Shown here one piece after another: positions 2,432 to 47,716 of a DNA stretch of 64,000 nt. This DNA is from Clostridiaceae bacterium M8S5. GTDB lineage: Bacteria; Bacillota; Clostridia; Tissierellales; MCWD3. Positions within the stretch are counted from its first letter, which is position 1. Each line of letters begins with the position of its first letter. Both the position numbers and the translations under genes were made by a program. Where the stretch lies: positions 4,395,500-4,459,499 of the forward strand of contig CP118523.1 in NCBI GenBank assembly GCA_029227815.1, read 5' to 3'. The notes below the pieces were generated by a model. That model made no database searches. It saw only the letters and a list, made by a program, of their open reading frames with translations, and was not told the origin of the DNA.

Positions 2432-3418
2432 ATGAACGATAGTGTTATTAGAGAAATACTAAAAAATTACGAATCTAAGTTAGATCAAAAAAAACGTGAG
2501 CAAACTATACGAGTAAGAGAAATCTACAACTTAATTCCTCGTATTGAAGAAATAGATAAAAAAATTGCATCTTTAGGCGTAGCAACTTCAAAGGAGATAT
2601 TAAAGAACTCTGGTTGTATAGAGAATAAGATAGAGCAATTACAACACCAAATACAATCTCTTAAGCAAGAAAAAGCTATACTAATGACCGAAAACAATAT
2701 CCCTATAAATTATACAGATATTGCATATGATTGTGTAAGGTGTAAGGATACTGGATATCTTGAGAATGGTAAAAAATGCAATTGTTTTAAGCAAGCATTA
2801 ATAAGAACTGCTTACAAGATGTCTAATTTAGAGAGAATGCTTGCTAAAGAAAATTTTCAAACCTTTAATATAAATCTGTTCTCTGATGAGTCTTATGAAA
2901 ATGAACAGCGTACTCCAAAAGAGAATATGAAATTTATAGCTAATGTATGCGAAGGTTTTGTTATTAATTTTGATAAGGATAATGAAGAAAATTTACTATT
3001 TTATGGTACTACTGGTTTAGGAAAAACATTCATGTGCAACTGCATTGCTAAAAACTTACTTGATAAGGGGAAAATTGTACTGTATCAAACTGCTTTTAAT
3101 ATATTAGATATTATTAGAACCTATAAATTTAAGGACATAGCAAAAGATACTTCTTACCAACTAGCATACAATCTATTGTTTAGTTCTGATTTGCTAATAA
3201 TTGACGACCTTGGTACTGAACTAACCACTGCTTTTACAAATACTGAGATGTTTAACATCATAAATTCTAGACTTGTAAATGGTAAGAAAACTATAATCTC
3301 TACAAATCATCATCCTAGAGAACTATCGCAAATGTATTCCGACAGGTTTTTTTCTAGAATATTTGGTAAGTTTATAGAACTAAAGTTTTATGGTAATGAT
3401 TTAAGATGGGAAGAATAG
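2432..3418 (+). CDS. dnaI: Primosomal helicase loader, DnaC/DnaI family AAA+ ATPase
   Basis: Walker A GTTGLGKT, Walker B LLIIDDLG, and an N-terminal Cys-rich zinc motif (CVRCKDTGY..KCNC). A GGGAGG RBS lies 7 nt before the ATG at 2432; the ORF track start at 2411 is probably too early. Confidence 0.75.
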   Translation: MNDSVIREILKNYESKLDQKKREQTIRVREIYNLIPRIEEIDKKIASLGVATSKEILKNSGCIENKIEQLQHQIQSLKQEKAILMTENNIPINYTDIAYDCVRCKDTGYLENGKKCNCFKQALIRTAYKMSNLERMLAKENFQTFNINLFSDESYENEQRTPKENMKFIANVCEGFVINFDKDNEENLLFYGTTGLGKTFMCNCIAKNLLDKGKIVLYQTAFNILDIIRTYKFKDIAKDTSYQLAYNLLFSSDLLIIDDLGTELTTAFTNTEMFNIINSRLVNGKKTIISTNHHPRELSQMYSDRFFSRIFGKFIELKFYGNDLRWEE

Positions 3419-21563: not shown

Positions 21564-22364
21564 ATGAAAAATAACAATATAAATTGGCAAAAAGAAAGTA
21601 CTCGATTTGATGTTGCATCTGATTATTACGATAAATATCGACCTAGCTATCCTAGTCAAATGATAGAACACCTTTTAAAGTATACAAATATGGTCCCTAC
21701 AAAACAAATATTAGAAATAGGTTCTGGTAGCGGGAAAGCAACAGAACTGTTCGTTAATAGAGGCTATAATTTAACATGTATAGAACAAGGTGTAAACCTT
21801 GTCTCTAAAGGAAACGAAAAGTTTGCTCATACAAATCAAGTCAGTTTTATTAACACTAGATTTGAAGATTGGCATGTATCAAAAAACACTTATGATTTGG
21901 TAATTTCTGCTCAAGCGTTTCACTGGGTTGAAAAACCATTAGGTTTTATTAAGAGTGCAAAAGCCTTGAAACCAAATGGTCATGTTGGGTTATTCTGGAA
22001 TATGTACTATGACGATGAAGATATATCTACAAAGCCACTTATTGATATATGTAAAAAATATGGTGTTGTACCATTTTCAACTCGTAGCAATCTACAGAAA
22101 TTACAACTAATTAACATTAAAGAAATAAATGAAAGCAATGTCTTTAATAAACCTGATGTTTTTGTGTATCCATGGTCTATTATTACAGATTGGCAAGCCT
22201 TTGTAGGCTTTTTAAAAACAGGAAACGGATATATTGCTTTAAAACCTTCCGTTAAAACCCAACTTGAGAACGAATTATTATCAATTTTTAAAGCTTTAGG
22301 TGGAAGTTTTGAGTTTAAATTTAAATGCACACTATATATAGCTCAAAAAAAAATAGCCTCATAA
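21564..22364 (+). CDS. Class I SAM-dependent methyltransferase
   Basis: Motif I ILEIGSGSGKATELF; 266 aa; an AAAGGAGG RBS. Confidence 0.65.
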   Translation: MKNNNINWQKESTRFDVASDYYDKYRPSYPSQMIEHLLKYTNMVPTKQILEIGSGSGKATELFVNRGYNLTCIEQGVNLVSKGNEKFAHTNQVSFINTRFEDWHVSKNTYDLVISAQAFHWVEKPLGFIKSAKALKPNGHVGLFWNMYYDDEDISTKPLIDICKKYGVVPFSTRSNLQKLQLINIKEINESNVFNKPDVFVYPWSIITDWQAFVGFLKTGNGYIALKPSVKTQLENELLSIFKALGGSFEFKFKCTLYIAQKKIAS

Positions 22365-22549
22365 AATGAGGCTATTAGATTGATTACAAAGTCATCAAGA
22401 TAGCAGACTGTGGTAAGAGTTCAAGTTCAAGGCGTGTTAAAATTGAGTAGCACAGCTTACTTAGAGGTAAGTGAGCAACGGAAATTTTGGGACAACGCAG
22501 AAATTGGGCTTTTGTCTACAGTCTGATAGCCTCATAAAAATGAGGCTAT
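22353..22549 (+). repeat. Copy A of a ~148-nt structured repeat element (core 22379-22525), bracketed by two copies of the local terminator hairpin ATAGCCTCATAAA(A)TGAGGCTAT (22353-22375 and 22526-22549)
   Basis: About 90% identical to copy B at 26151-26298 in the same orientation. It has internal stems with compensatory changes, and the flanking hairpin is duplicated on both sides. Confidence 0.7.
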
Positions 22550-22563
22550 TACTTATTCTACTA

Positions 22564-26075: not shown

Positions 26076-26118
26076 GACTAAACTACTTCTCTAGTTTAGA
26101 GAAATTAGTAAAACACTA

Positions 26119-26326
26119 AGAGGATGGCTTATATTAAGCCATCTTCTTAGGTTGATGACAAAGTCATCAAGATAGCAGACTTTAGTAAAAGTTCAATTTC
26201 AAGGCGTGTTAAAATTGAGTAGCAGAGCTTACTTAGAGGTAAGTGAGCAACGGAAATTTTAACAACAACGCAAAAATTGGGCTTTTGTCTAAAGTCTGAG
26301 AGGATGGCTTATATTAAGCCACCCTA
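26119..26326 (+). repeat. Copy B of the ~148-nt structured repeat element (core 26151-26298), bracketed by two copies of a different local hairpin GAGGATGGCTTATATTAAGCCA (26119-26146 and 26299-26326)
   Basis: Same element as copy A; here the flanking duplicated hairpin is specific to this locus. Confidence 0.7.
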
Positions 26327-37522: not shown

Positions 37523-40180
37523 CTAATCATGCATAAATGCATTGTTTTTAAAATATTTTTGTATTTTTCTTACTACTGTGGATTGATTAACTTTTAAAAC
37601 TTGTGCTATTTCATAGGTTGTCCTGTATTTTTTGTATGCATTCTCAATCAATTGTTTTTCTAATAGCTCTATTGCTTCTTTAAGTGGAATAATTCCGTTA
37701 ATATCTATTTTATTAGCATTTCTAAGGTTCTCCATAAACAAAAATGCTGGCAAATCATTCTTATCTATTGTATCATTTCTAGTGGTTACTATTAGTCTCT
37801 CTATTAAATTCTCTAGTTCCCTAACATTCCCAGGCCAATCGTAAGTTTTTAAGATTTCTTCTCCTTGGCTAGTTATTTTTTTAGAGCAACTGTATTTATT
37901 ATTGTATATGTTAAGAAAATAATAACAAAGCGGTAATATATCATCAACTCTTTCTCTAAGTGGAGGTATGTTTATTGGCACAACATTTAGTCTATAATAT
38001 AAATCTGCTCTAAATGTCCCCTCCTTAACCATTTGGAACAAATCTCTATTGGTCGCGGCTATTATTCTTACATCTACATAAATTTCCTTTGTTCCTCCTA
38101 TTCTTATAAGCTTTCTTTCTTGTAAGACTCTTAATAGCTTAACTTGTATATTAAGAGGTAATTCTCCTATCTCGTCTAGGAAAAGTGTCCCTTTATCTGC
38201 TATTTCTATTAATCCTGGTTTTCCACGCTTAGATGCGCCTGTGAATGCACCTGTTTCATATCCAAAAAGTTCTGATTCTATCAAACTTTCTGGAATGGCT
38301 CCACAGTTTATCTTAACCATGGGAATATCTTTTCTTCCGCTAAGGCTATGTATGAATTTTGCAATTACTTCTTTTCCTACCCCTGATTCTCCTAGTATAA
38401 GTATTGTTGAATCAACACATGCTACTTTGCTTGCTGTCTGCAGTACTTTACCGAACTCAATACTGTTTGCAACAAGATTTGCATTGTTCGTCACATTGTT
38501 ATACATTTCTTTTTTATCATTTTCAATATTAAAATATTTTTGTAACTTCTTTGTCTCATTTAGTTGCTCTCTAAGCTTAATTAATTCTTCAATATCTCTT
38601 ATATTCGTGACAACTCTAGCTATATTGTTACTTTCATCAAAAACAGGTGTAGCTGTTGCTAAATATTGATTTGAATTAAACGAATTTTGTATAAATGATA
38701 TTCTTCTCTTTTCTTTTAGTACTAGGAGTGTTCCTGATGGGAATATTATGTTATTATTCTCCATTTCTAGTACATTGTCTTTCTCTCTATCAAACCCGAT
38801 CATGTTTTTCCATGCTTTATTCGTCTTTAATATTTTGCCTTGCCCATCTGTTACCATCATCCCATCATACGAAGATTCTATTATCGTCTCAAGCTCTTCT
38901 TTTAGTGTAGTAATCTCTTTTAATCTTCCCGATATCTCCTTTAATAACTTAGTCTTTTTGTTGTTCAGATAAGGAAGGCACATCTCAACTTCTGCAATAC
39001 CTTGCACAACAGCTACTGCTTTGTCTCTACATGTGTTGTATCCACATGCCCCACAATTGAGTTGATCTTTTTCCGTTTGCTTATCTGTTAGTTTAAGTAC
39101 CTGATCTATTTCTCTTTCCGACGGATATGGCATTATACTTCTTCTGTTAGTGAACGTCCTTTTATAGTTAATTTCTGTATCTAACTCTACTGCATTTTTT
39201 ACGTATTTTCTATTATTGTAGAATTTTTTTATTGTATGTAATTTCTCAAACATACTAAGATCACTATCTATTTTACATCCATTTATACAACCATTACACA
39301 TAAGCACATCTACAAATTTAAAAGTAAATTTTCCTTCAAGAAGTGAATCTACAAGTTCAAAGCATTCTTCCTCACCATCAATATATATGTAATCTTCATT
39401 TATTAGGCTGTCGTCTTGTTTAAACACATTCTTAATCATTCCACCTGATAGAGGGAATAATCTGCCATTTCTATTACCAACAACATCAAACTCTTGCTCA
39501 CTTGACTGCCTTATATTGATTTTATTTTTTATAAAAAGCCTTTTAAGCTCCTCAAATGTTAAGGCACAATCTATTACACCACTATTTTGAAATTCCATAG
39601 CCTCAGCTTTTTTAGCAACACATGGTCCTATAAATACTATCTTTGTATCATCCTCTGGGTATTTTTTTCTTATTATTCTACCAGTGCTTATCATTGGAGA
39701 TACAAAGGGTAACAGATTATCAATAAGCTCAGGATAATGCTTTTCTATCATCGTTGTAAATGCTGTACACGCAGTACTAATATATGTTTTCTTATCATTA
39801 TCAGATATGTAGTCTTTTACTCTATTCGATAGCTCTTCTGCTCCAAAAGCTACTTCCCATACTTCGTCAAACCCTAATTCTTTTAAAGCACCTACTACTT
39901 TTTTATATGAAAACGTATGAAAACTTACGACAAAAGAAGGAGCTATACAAGCAACTATTCTCTTATTTTGTTTTAGAATGTTTTGGCATCTTGTCTCACT
40001 ATCTAGGACAATTTTAGCATTTTGAGGACAACTGCTTATACACTTACCACAGTTGATGCATCTAGAATACATTATTTCTGCTTGTCCATTTTTTATCTGA
40101 ACAGCTTTAACTGGACAATTTCTAACACATGCATAACACTGTTTACACTTGTTTTGTGTCACACTTATTATATTTTTCAT
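37523..40180 (-). CDS. Sigma-54-dependent enhancer-binding protein with an N-terminal 2x[4Fe-4S] ferredoxin plus [FeFe]-hydrogenase-like (H-cluster-type) sensor domain, a central PAS-like region, an AAA+ sigma-54 activator domain and a C-terminal Fis-type HTH
   Basis: N-terminal CxxCxxCxxxCP x2, then hydrogenase large-subunit-like motifs (STACTAF, GPCVAKKAEA, LMCNGCINGC). The AAA+ part has Walker A GESGVGKE and a GAFTGA-like GAFTGASKRG. The HTH is C-terminal. An AGGAAAGGTG RBS precedes the ATG at 40180. Confidence 0.8.
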   Translation of the reverse strand: MKNIISVTQNKCKQCYACVRNCPVKAVQIKNGQAEIMYSRCINCGKCISSCPQNAKIVLDSETRCQNILKQNKRIVACIAPSFVVSFHTFSYKKVVGALKELGFDEVWEVAFGAEELSNRVKDYISDNDKKTYISTACTAFTTMIEKHYPELIDNLLPFVSPMISTGRIIRKKYPEDDTKIVFIGPCVAKKAEAMEFQNSGVIDCALTFEELKRLFIKNKINIRQSSEQEFDVVGNRNGRLFPLSGGMIKNVFKQDDSLINEDYIYIDGEEECFELVDSLLEGKFTFKFVDVLMCNGCINGCKIDSDLSMFEKLHTIKKFYNNRKYVKNAVELDTEINYKRTFTNRRSIMPYPSEREIDQVLKLTDKQTEKDQLNCGACGYNTCRDKAVAVVQGIAEVEMCLPYLNNKKTKLLKEISGRLKEITTLKEELETIIESSYDGMMVTDGQGKILKTNKAWKNMIGFDREKDNVLEMENNNIIFPSGTLLVLKEKRRISFIQNSFNSNQYLATATPVFDESNNIARVVTNIRDIEELIKLREQLNETKKLQKYFNIENDKKEMYNNVTNNANLVANSIEFGKVLQTASKVACVDSTILILGESGVGKEVIAKFIHSLSGRKDIPMVKINCGAIPESLIESELFGYETGAFTGASKRGKPGLIEIADKGTLFLDEIGELPLNIQVKLLRVLQERKLIRIGGTKEIYVDVRIIAATNRDLFQMVKEGTFRADLYYRLNVVPINIPPLRERVDDILPLCYYFLNIYNNKYSCSKKITSQGEEILKTYDWPGNVRELENLIERLIVTTRNDTIDKNDLPAFLFMENLRNANKIDINGIIPLKEAIELLEKQLIENAYKKYRTTYEIAQVLKVNQSTVVRKIQKYFKNNAFMHD

Positions 40181-40609
40181 CTTGAACACCTTTCCTGTAA
40201 TTTCTTTTTGTGTTTAATTACAAAATGTAATTTTTTAATATGTATTAAATAATTGAGAATTTTATGCCTAGAATTTTTTTATGAGTAACTATGGAATTGA
40301 ATTGCGTATATTTTAAATGTTATATATTATATTTTGTGCAATATAAATAAATTGTACTTTATATTTTAATGAAATGCAATGCTTATATCTACAATACTTA
40401 ATATTATATTTATTATATTAGTTATATTATTATTGTCTTTTCTTATCATTCGTCAACTAGAATAGTTATTTGTATAAACTTTTTTAAGTTATCTTATTAA
40501 ATGTAAGTATACAACATTTTTCATGCTAAATTTGTCAAAATCAATAATAGTCAAATAAAAGTAGCTAATTCTTATGAAAAGCTACTCTTTAATATGTATG
40601 CGTTATTAT

Positions 40610-41510: not shown

Positions 41511-42062
41511 ATGGCAAGAGATTATAAACTTCTGAAATGGTCTGTAATTTTTATATTCATCAACGTAAAGATTCAGTTTATAAATATAACACCTAATATA
41601 TTGGGCTATATATTAATAGTAATTGCTTGTTCTAACTTATATTATGATACTAACGATAAGTTTTTCTTAAAATCTAAAAAAATAGCCAGTATATTGATTC
41701 TCGTTGACGTGATTATATTCTTTATAAACACTACTAGTCCGTCTTATATTATTTTGCAAACGATAGTATACAATATTTTAAGATTAATGTTATTTTACAA
41801 TATTTATAGTGGAACTATTGCTTTAGTCCATTCCAAATATGCGACTTTAACAATCAAATTGTTTAAAACACAAAAAACCTTGATATATTATTTTGTATTT
41901 CTGTCTATCCTATTTAGTCTAACTTTGTTTTCAAATAATAATGGTCTTACATTTGTACTCTTTTTTAGTATATTTTTTCGATTAGTTTTTGCATTATACT
42001 TAATGGTTGATTTCAATAATATAAAAGCCAAGTTGGAAGAATATGAAGCAACTAATCTATAA
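41511..42062 (+). CDS. Hypothetical polytopic membrane protein (183 aa)
   Basis: Five or six hydrophobic segments; no recognisable motif. Confidence 0.35.
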   Translation: MARDYKLLKWSVIFIFINVKIQFINITPNILGYILIVIACSNLYYDTNDKFFLKSKKIASILILVDVIIFFINTTSPSYIILQTIVYNILRLMLFYNIYSGTIALVHSKYATLTIKLFKTQKTLIYYFVFLSILFSLTLFSNNNGLTFVLFFSIFFRLVFALYLMVDFNNIKAKLEEYEATNL

Positions 42063-42180
42063 ATAATTATAAAGTATAAAAAAGATATCTTTTTGGATAG
42101 ATGTCTTTTTTATATCGTTTATTTGTACAGATTGTTATCTTTTTATGCACAATATAATATCAAAATTGGGTTATTACAAA

Positions 42181-42655
42181 AAAGTATCAAGGGTTTATAA
42201 GATGAAAGAAATACAAGGCATTAAAATGTTTTGTAAAGAACGTTGTACGTGAATTTTTTGATTTACAAAAAATAAGTAACCAAAAAACTAATAGGCGTTG
42301 TATGTCGAGTGAAGTGCAAGGAACATAAAAAATTCTAGTGAATGAGCGTACTAAGGACGTGATTGAACTAATTACTACCGAAAAGGGTTTATAAGAGGAA
42401 TGAGCATACTTAGTATGTATGACTTAAAAATTTTGATTTACAAAAAATAAGAAACCAAAAATTATCTATGATGAGTAAAGTGCAAGGAATAAAAAAATTT
42501 CAGTGAATGAGCGTATTTTAAGATACGTGATTGAACTAATTGCTACCGAAAAATCCCAAGGGTTAATAAGATGAGTGAAGTACAAGGCATTTAAATATTT
42601 TAGCGAGTGAGCGTACTTAGGTACGTGAATGAACTAAAAATTTAAATAACGCAGT
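42181..42655. repeat. Degenerate tandem repeat array (4-5 copies of an ~85-nt unit containing GAGTGAAGTGCAAGGAA...AGTGAATGAGCGTACttagGTACGTGATTGAACTAATTaCTACCGAAAA, with a recurring ~45-nt AT-rich spacer) immediately 3' of the 5S rRNA gene
   Basis: Read directly. Unit starts lie near 42307, 42471 and 42571, with partial copies at 42190 and 42385. The inner hairpin shows compensatory changes (CGTAC/GTACG versus CGTAT/ATACG). Confidence 0.6.
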
Positions 42656-42687
42656 AATTCGCCATCTTAGAAGGCAAACACAAAAAA

Positions 42688-42803
42688 ACTGGCGACGTCC
42701 TACTCTCCCAGGCAGTCTCCCACCAAGTACCATCAGCGCTAAGAGGCTTAACTTCCGTGTTCGGTATGGGAACGGGTGTGACCCTCTTGCTGTAATCACC
42801 AGA
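42688..42803 (-). rRNA. rrf: 5S ribosomal RNA
   Basis: The reverse complement reads TCTGGTGATTACAGCAAGAGGGTCACACCCGTTCCCATACCGAACACGGAAGTTAAGC...GAGAGTAGGACGTCGCCAG, a canonical 5S. Confidence 0.9.
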
Positions 42804-42855
42804 TTTAAAATAAAATATTAAGTTTGAAGTTAATACCTTCAAAACTACACAGAAA

Positions 42856-47716
<4,861 letters not shown>

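Follow-up and report, generated by a model that had tools for sequence, protein, structure and literature searches.

Clusters of palindromic repeats between bacterial genes are already known (REP/BIME, ERIC, Correia, BOX/RUP, and bcr1). The ERIC/IRU, Correia (Neisseria), RUP/BOX (pneumococcus), and bcr1 (Bacillus cereus) families are multi-copy, imperfect intergenic palindromes of ~100-160 bp whose RNAs are rod-like. A given site may be occupied or not, some families are modular (BOX A-B-C), and the repeats can be terminators or RNase III substrates. Families of the MITE type (miniature transposable elements bounded by inverted repeats) have terminal inverted repeats that match a transposase, are flanked by 2-5-bp target duplications, and remain within one genus or family. 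REPs are ~35 nt long, G+C-rich, and species-specific, with a conserved stem, and are moved by RAYT transposases. The locus described here lies in a 64,000-nt stretch of the genome of Clostridiaceae bacterium M8S5 (contig CP118523.1, positions 4,395,500-4,459,499; hereafter the window), where positions 42175-42669, beside a 5S ribosomal RNA (rRNA) gene, are filled by repeated sequence. As with the REP/BIME clusters and REPINs of Enterobacteria and Pseudomonas, its repeats and their relatives are extragenic hairpin palindromes located after genes or between convergent genes. Intact and partial units likewise form mosaic clusters with recurrent linkers, and would provide 3′-end hairpins at the RNA level.

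The units of this array belong to a dispersed family of covarying, strand-specific rods that extends beyond rRNA operon (rrn) loci, and one unit alone, c5, is intact. We favor, with a probability of about 0.6, the reading that 42175-42669 is a pile-up of one intact and four decayed or truncated copies of a dispersed, rod-shaped, probably insertional element. The structured element is apparently undescribed. Rfam 15 over 41900-42900 gave nothing but the 5S rRNA, either at the gathering score or at E<=10, and a narrow search of the literature on the core sequence and on terminator-duplicating repeats returned nothing relevant.

Results

An Intact Rod and Two Dispersed Relatives

The sole intact array copy, c5 (42567-42669, + strand), ends 17 nt from the 3′ end of the 5S gene. 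It folds into a rod consisting of an outer stem, a CAAGGC/AACGCAG loop, a 14-bp stem (P2), a second loop (CGAGUGAG/UGAAUGAA), and the apical stem CGUAC-UUAG-GUACG, with a minimum free energy (MFE) of -33.6 kcal/mol (z -5.85). By strand, the sense sequence gave -32.8 and the antisense sequence -25.2 kcal/mol. A covariance model (CM) termed R1, trained solely on four near-identical metagenome copies, with no window sequence among them, matched c5 over its full length (49.6 bits, E 3e-11).

Two further intact copies, E2 and E3, were found on the + strand of the window. E2 (22376-22527) represents a second subfamily and matched R1 at 22406-22523 (35.7 bits, E 3e-7). It has the CAAGGCG/AACGCAG loop as in c5, differs from the c5 type by covarying changes in its apex (CAGCUUAC...GUAAGUGAGCAAC), and has an MFE of -50 kcal/mol (z -6.8), as opposed to -29 for the antisense strand; a small hairpin stands ahead of the rod. 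E3 (26150-26298), a second copy of this subfamily that by eye is closely similar to E2, reached 20.9 bits against R1 at 26191-26282 and folds at -56 kcal/mol (z -8.8). As an intact relative, E3 spans 26178-26296. Against a second model, R2, it scored 87.5 bits, although it belongs to the R2 training set. With filters off, R2 recognized c5, E2, and E3 as the only full copies in the window, all on the + strand, and matched the array copies c2 and c4 at the apex only. A BLAST search of the array units against the window found no other copies at the sequence level, and E2 and E3 were detectable only by covariance model. Both lie far from any rRNA gene, each in an intergenic region between convergent genes, behind a gene on the + strand. 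Since two of the three intact copies in 64 kb are thus remote from rrn, the family is not specific to rRNA operons.

E2 and E3 are also flanked by direct repeats of the local terminator. At E2 the repeat is 25/26 nt long (22353-22377 and 22526-22551) and at E3 it is 26 nt long (26116-26141 and 26296-26321), and the terminator sequences repeated at the two loci differ from each other. Each pair looks like a long target duplication. In a search for an empty E2 site in relatives, no close ortholog of the neighboring gene was found (best 52% identity).

Structure, Covariation, and Strand

Every full-length member folds into a single rod of 100-150 nt with z between -4.6 and -9.5. The element itself measures 105-150 nt at 30-57% G+C, and its stems vary while its loops are conserved. 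When 12 members were aligned to the model, 91% of the cells were standard pairs, compared with 34-44% when the 3′ partners were slid by 1-3 columns. Both sides had changed at 37 of 44 pairs, and none of 500 shuffles reached the observed values. RNAalifold on the model-based alignment returned essentially the same rod (41 pairs, 35 with double changes), whereas MAFFT followed by RNAalifold on the unaligned units recovered the apical stem alone, so that a structure-aware CM alignment was needed. The original prediction, made from the array sequence, had proposed selection on hairpin structure, a proposal that we find to be correct. Apical stem variants within the family include CGUAC/GUACG, CGUAU/AUACG, CUUAC/GUAAG, and CGUGC/GCACG.

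Two internal loops are conserved. Loop 1 sets CAAGG(C)G opposite AACGCAG, and in intact members the CAAGG is partly paired with AACGCAG. Loop 2 sets (U)GAUUGAG opposite UGAUUGAAC; read antiparallel, it would form, in our reading, two tandem G.A/A.G pairs split by two variable pairs. The G.U pair that closes loop 2 is kept as G.U in 11 of 12 members, and together the loop and this pair argue for constraint at the RNA level. We also compared the rod with the K-turn, loop E, the hairpin ribozyme, the T-box, signal recognition particle RNA, the IS110 bridge RNA, and retron non-coding RNA, and found none to suit a symmetric GA-UU-GA loop in a single rod.

In full-length members, the strand equivalent to the + strand of the window is 7-19 kcal/mol more stable than its complement and has more G.U pairs. 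At the array, this folding strand is antisense to rrn. Being a long, imperfect palindrome that folds preferentially on one strand, the element could also act as single-stranded DNA, with RNA uninvolved, in the manner of REPIN/REP sequences or of derivatives of IS200/IS605 elements, which are moved by an HUH (Y1) transposase. Extragenic positions, clusters and mosaics resembling BIMEs, and the small subterminal hairpin containing TTGAT with which E2 and E3 start would suit such a role. However, the stable strand is not the lagging-strand template in the window, where the minus strand is the leading one, judging by the genes and the G>C skew, so that the lagging-strand template carries minus-strand sequence. 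Moreover, motifs such as tandem G.A pairs and a conserved G.U(T) wobble are typical of RNA, HUH transposition proceeds without target duplication whereas E2 and E3 have 26-nt repeats, and no Y1 transposase gene was seen nearby. We regard a DNA-level role as very unlikely.

Relatives in Other Genomes and Metagenomes

Eight contigs (L006-L013) were matched when metagenomes were scanned with the best-conserved part of the unit, TGAGCGTAY..ACGTGAWTGAAC. These are not chance matches: on either side, the contigs are collinear with c5 (CAAGGCG, then a long 5′ arm, (A/G)UGAGCGUAY, a loop, RUACGUGAUUGAAC, a 3′ arm, and AACGCAG). Contig L006 derives from Candidatus Limimorpha (Bacteroidales). R1 also matches L005, L006, L012, and L013. 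The neighboring genes are housekeeping genes unrelated to one another (htpG, rpiB/lepB, glutaminase, hpt, a DUF937 gene, and a transfer RNA (tRNA) cluster), and the elements in L006-L013 had no Rfam match even at permissive thresholds. Viral contigs, plasmids, and phages were searched and yielded no copies, and a scan with the repeat core of a genome collection that does not contain M8S5 gave 0 matches.

Several of these copies show how the element is distributed. In A/T-rich metagenomic organisms, elements that are 93-96% identical occupy different gene contexts, adjoining htpG in L007 (1140-1257), L008 (455-572), and L011 (450-566), and rpiB in L010 (1507-1624). Three copies lie on the minus strand of L009 (PDWI01011254.1, 8498-9338) between tRNA genes and in the tRNA orientation, with a tRNA or tRNA fragment 6-22 nt downstream of each; one of them has an intact tRNA-Pro on one side and, on the other, a ~52-nt duplicate of that gene's 3′ half. 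The minus strand of L013 (3815-4075) holds two head-to-tail copies and the 3′-end fragment of a third behind a terminator-like hairpin, and tandem arrays of the element are thus not unique to the 5S tail. At the DUF937 locus of Ca. Limimorpha, a rod stands directly before a T-tract in L006 (3771-3887), L016 (3123-3239), L018 (2124-2240), and L019-L023, and an ordinary 28-nt terminator hairpin stands before the same T-tract in L014, L015, and L017 (~3055-3165). The rod is polymorphic for presence or absence at this locus, where it takes the position of a terminator hairpin.

A G+C-rich member with the covarying apex CGUGC/GCACG was observed in a Peptostreptococcaceae metagenome-assembled genome (MAG; L005, 899-1014), ~500 nt downstream of a 5S gene. 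It lies between tRNA-Met and tRNA-Val, on the tRNA strand, and ends 6 nt before tRNA-Val.

These placements bear on the main rival to an insertional origin, a family of small RNA (sRNA) genes. Under this explanation, the rod is a non-mobile cellular sRNA gene, protein-binding or housekeeping, and the array is a + strand cluster of 'sibling' sRNA paralogs. Loop sequences and the G.U pair are shared by different phyla, the stems covary, and the fold is strand-specific. The copies in the tRNA operons of L005 and L009, on the tRNA strand and 6-22 nt upstream of a tRNA or fragment, would be co-transcribed and processed. By eye, the copy in L007, L008, and L011 is single, preceded by -35/-10-like sequence and followed by a hairpin, and in Limimorpha a T-tract comes after the rod, as in a 3′-UTR-derived sRNA (one from a 3′ untranslated region). 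On the other hand, only one of the five array copies retains the rod, the array offers weak promoter-like matches, and c5 has no + strand terminator, so that its transcript would continue into 5S and 23S in antisense, head-on to that of rrn. Insertion events, moreover, are indicated by the duplications at the flanks and by the presence/absence polymorphism. On balance we consider a family of stationary sRNA genes unlikely.

Organization of the Array

The repeat search detected nine direct-repeat families within 42175-42640. Three core motifs are confined to the array in the 64 kb, where ~0-0.15 matches would be expected by chance. Tandem Repeats Finder did not detect the array, because its copies differ by indels and truncations. 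An earlier description of alternating ~85-nt units and ~45-nt spacers was right that repeats are present and wrong about their layout, which is ~2.5 copies of a 170-195-nt composite of four modules. M1 (CAAGGGTTTATAAGATGA) is present in three copies, M2 (GAGTGAAGTGCAAGG...GAGCGTAC-loop-GTACGTGATTGAAC) in three full and two truncated copies, and M3 is TTRCTACCGAAAA. M4 (TTTTGATTTACAAAAAATAAGWAACCAAAAA), the former 'spacer', has two copies that are 97% identical and looks like a degenerate 3′ arm of the element. A CRISPR array had been excluded at the outset, and we agree: the units are 70-86% alike, differ by indels, and are joined by recurring linkers, and are not near-identical 23-55-nt repeats with unique spacers.

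Upstream of c5, the remaining four copies, all on the + strand, are incomplete or degraded. The second and fourth, c2 (42296-42384) and c4 (42466-42556), each comprise a 5′ arm, an apex, and the M3 linker, and are 86% identical over 81 nt. Membership of c5 is marked by both loops and the covarying apical stem, whereas c2 and c4 lack AACGCAG. They lack the outer stem as well, together with the 3′ arm in c2 and the P2 3′ arm in c4, which is truncated or decayed. The apical stem of c4 is CGTAT/ATACG, and that of c2 is hurt by a 1-nt deletion (CGTAC/G-ACG). The CM matched them at the apex only (c2 at 42336-42370, 20.6 bits; c4 at 42502-42537, 25 bits), and both fold no better than shuffled sequence (z -0.45 for 42296-42392 and -0.29 for 42462-42560). 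The third copy, c3 (42383-42465), consists of M1, an apex whose 5′ arm is deleted (CATAC-TTA-GTATG), and M4 at 42431-42461. The first, c1 (42175-42295), contains an M3-like segment, M1, a 5′ arm, a short apex (ACGT-TGT-ACGT), and M4 at 42256-42286; it is full length in outline though decayed, and 81-87% identical to the 5′ part of c5 over 45-58 nt. Neither c1 nor c3 had a CM match. Decay of c1-c4 is thus indicated by CM matches that are apex-only or missing and by the shuffled-like folds of c2 and c4.

The inner hairpin had been predicted to vary in a pair-preserving way. This holds for CGTAT/ATACG and for CATAC/GTATG (42405-42417), which are two true compensatory variants of CGTAC/GTACG. It does not hold for CGTAC/GGACG at 42348-42360, a 1-nt deletion that weakens the stem. 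Over the whole region, folding is better than that of shuffled sequence on the + strand (z -2.9) but not on the rrn-sense strand (z -0.75). No tRNA-like units were detected in the array by ARAGORN, and on the + strand of the array no terminator-like site was found and promoter-like matches were weak. One weak promoter-like candidate, ATTACA-17-TATAAG, was read by eye at 42177-42205.

Two of the roles first proposed for the array are not supported by these observations. Titration of a protein by AAGGAA/CAAGGA loops does not fit the presence of one CAAGG per unit, in an internal loop and with the family consensus CAAGGCG, without GGA. Since the units do not display many GGA motifs in hairpin loops, a role of the CsrB/RsmZ type is unsupported. 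An sRNA cluster co-transcribed with rrn is at odds with a stable strand that is antisense to rrn and with intact relatives far from rRNA genes. A type III toxin-antitoxin RNA array (ToxI-like, with 34-45-nt repeats and a toxin gene) was considered separately and rejected: the units are ~85-190 nt, and the + strand then runs antisense to 5S and 23S, with no open reading frame (ORF).

In several copies, an AUG stands in frame with CAA GGN at the 5′ arm (42199-42252, 42302-42328, 42467-42505, and 42570-42593 in the window, and copies in L006, L007, and L009). The units could accordingly be remains of a small protein gene or of the 5′ end of a gene (M..QG..), and a Shine-Dalgarno-like AAGGG occurs 8 nt before the M1 ATG in addition to the ATG-CAAGG frame shared by the window copies, L006, L007, and L009. 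Yet the ORFs have 7-32 codons, and their frames and stops differ among close relatives (10 codons in L007 vs. 32 in L011, for which a 1-nt indel accounts). Third codon positions show no excess of substitutions, an ATG is absent from E2, E3, and L013, and the reconstructed peptide showed no similarity elsewhere in the window by tblastn. Six-frame translation, the reconstructed peptides, and tblastn together show ORFs unconserved in frame and length and effectively refute a coding origin, to which we assign next to no probability. The AUG/CAA GGN frame is probably a by-product of nucleotide conservation.

Setting of the Locus and the rrn Operon

Abyssisolibacter sp. (Clostridiaceae bacterium) M8S5 is an anaerobe from a cold seep, and its 4.68-Mb genome has seven rrn operons (PMC10536192). 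One 227-aa protein encoded in the window is 100% identical to PV797_20750. The 16S (47723-46193), 23S (45976-42861), and 5S (42803-42687) genes were located with Rfam, the 5S by RF00001 at 103.7 bits. All three are on the minus strand, which places the array 3′ of 5S in the rrn sense. The original prediction had put the array directly 3′ of the 5S gene, and this position is confirmed; 5S is the last gene of the 16S-23S-5S operon and converges on the array. A tRNA gene is absent from the 16S-23S spacer (window 45977-46192), and the operon is thus one of the four 16S-23S-5S type operons reported for M8S5.

The array occupies a convergent intergenic region whose left neighbor is a + strand membrane-protein gene (41511-42062). 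Its left border is an A/T-rich inverted repeat, I4 (42075-42114, both strands), flanked by A and T runs, with 16-nt arms that are 94% complementary; it is likely the terminator of the membrane-protein gene. On the rrn strand, this is the first hairpin plus T-tract, ~570 nt downstream of 5S, and no such terminator-like site was found on the minus strand from 42687 to 42114. At 42670-42686, right after 5S, a canonical terminator is absent, unlike in Anaeromonas (L002, L004) and a MAG (L003).

Given these surroundings, the array might be the 3′ trailer of rrn, with a functional minus strand that serves termination, 5S processing, or the release of small RNAs. It begins 17 nt after 5S, and the minus strand lacks a canonical terminator between 5S and 42114, so that rrn read-through probably crosses the array. 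Other taxa have a terminator ~20-60 nt after 5S, which implies that something must end the M8S5 operon, and c5 read in antisense still folds into a hairpin of -25 kcal/mol. Against a trailer function, the minus strand of the array folds like shuffled sequence (z -0.75), no T-tract follows the antisense rod, the G.U pairs and energies of the family point to the opposite strand, and the identical architecture is found far from rrn. In addition, relatives' 5S 3′ flanks do not have the array. Those flanks were fetched with a 5S anchor, and the comparison covers relatives whose 5S 3′ flank was readable: in Anaeromonas frigoriresistens and a Peptostreptococcaceae MAG there is no such array, and an ordinary terminator or tRNAs follow within tens of bases. 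We judge a trailer function quite improbable. The processing or termination structure first suggested for the array is likewise not supported, as its rrn strand has no hairpin plus T-tract and the 5S flanks of relatives are without it.

Further from the array, the minus strand at window 37523-40189 encodes a sigma-54-dependent activator with an unusual sensory module: toward the N terminus it matches the C-terminal domain of the Fe-only hydrogenase large subunit and 4Fe-4S domains, and PAS follows.

Discussion

Several signs point to insertion as the source of the rods, namely the terminator repeats at E2 and E3, the tRNA-Pro duplicate in L009, the Limimorpha polymorphism, and the near-identical copies at htpG and rpiB. 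With moderate confidence, we suggest from these sequence comparisons that the family may spread by insertion at structured 3′-end sequences and that the 5S tail would be a tolerated site of landing and duplication. In this proposal, a non-autonomous element would land at terminator hairpins or tRNA 3′ halves and duplicate or replace them. Copies are seen downstream of ordinary genes' terminators, in convergent intergenic regions, and within tRNA operons, singly or head-to-tail, and in several bacterial lineages. The 5S tail would offer a convergent intergenic 'safe' site, in which a composite of copies could have been tandemly duplicated and then decayed, and rrn read-through at the array would transcribe only the antisense of the rod. 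More tentatively, the rod might act at RNA 3′ ends as a terminator or stabilizer hairpin and as the binding site of a putative conserved protein.

Several observations weigh against an insertional origin. The intact array copy, c5, has no flanking duplication, and no transposase, integrase, or reverse transcriptase was seen near any copy. Duplications of 26-52 nt are unlike those made by ordinary transposases, the Limimorpha case is a replacement and not an insertion with duplication, and 20 kb of a Limimorpha contig hold a single copy. A loop sequence common to Bacillota and Bacteroidota suits a cellular functional RNA better than it does a selfish repeat. The covariation counts, furthermore, come from an alignment fitted to the model, and in the outermost helix covariation may be trivial if that helix is built from a duplicated palindromic target, since the inner arms of palindromic target copies can pair and lengthen the rod.

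In a bolder interpretation, the rod would be an undescribed class of structured RNA of Bacillota and Bacteroidota, with a double tandem-G.A loop that binds a conserved protein, and would copy itself beside structured 3′ ends (terminator hairpins and tRNA 3′ halves), leaving duplications of 26-52 nt. A possible route is that an RNA or complementary DNA (cDNA) intermediate acquires a cellular RNA's 3′ end and is inserted through a single crossover. Lengths of 26-52 nt are about the minimal homology for RecA recombination. We consider this interpretation distinctly unlikely; if true, it would represent a new kind of bacterial mobile RNA element able to replace intrinsic terminators.

The array itself is mostly debris, with no role in rRNA biology demonstrated. 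It nonetheless led to a structured element beyond the models of Rfam, with strong covariation and loops conserved between distant phyla. If the element is a functional RNA, a widespread motif with a putative protein partner has been added; if it is mobile, its long structured target duplications imply an insertion route unlike that of known bacterial MITEs. Rods of this kind can be mistaken for operon-specific regulatory RNAs or sRNA clusters.

Comparison with Known Systems

Arrays of structured units beside stable RNA genes, or of ~100-nt units side by side, have been described in other settings. RtT repeats of the E. coli tyrT operon are similarly tandem (~178 bp) and directly 3′ of a stable RNA gene. 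They are, however, locus-specific and co-transcribed with the tRNA on the same strand, whereas the element is dispersed and its folding strand is opposite to rrn. Clusters of sibling sRNAs (LhrC1-5, Qrr, and PrrF) and CsrB/RsmZ share with the array several structured units of ~100 nt placed side by side, and the CAAGGA-like motif of the array recalls the CsrA sites of sponge RNAs. Yet sibling sRNA units each have their own promoter and terminator and keep their structure, whereas the array has one intact unit, and sponge RNAs have many GGA motifs in hairpin loops, whereas in the element CAAGG lies in an internal loop with the consensus CAAGGCG. Bacterial class C group II introns, like the element, favor sites immediately 3′ of intrinsic terminator hairpins and are oriented as is the gene before them. 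The element differs from them in that it has no ribozyme domains and no Rfam intron match and is 10 times smaller, and the introns are not known to duplicate the terminator.

Among intergenic palindromes, REPs differ from the element, a 105-150-nt rod with variable stems and internal loops conserved between phyla, with no RAYT gene seen nearby. MITEs are defined by a 2-10-bp duplication and termini that match an insertion sequence; within the window, E2 and E3 have 26-nt repeats instead and c5 has none. In contrast to the MITE-like families described above, the element shows duplications of 26 nt at two copies and of ~52 nt at one, its apex and not its termini is conserved, and it crosses phyla. 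The family is therefore distinct from the known clusters of palindromic intergenic repeats in its conserved loops with variable stems, its spread across Bacillota and Bacteroidota, and its long duplications of structured targets.

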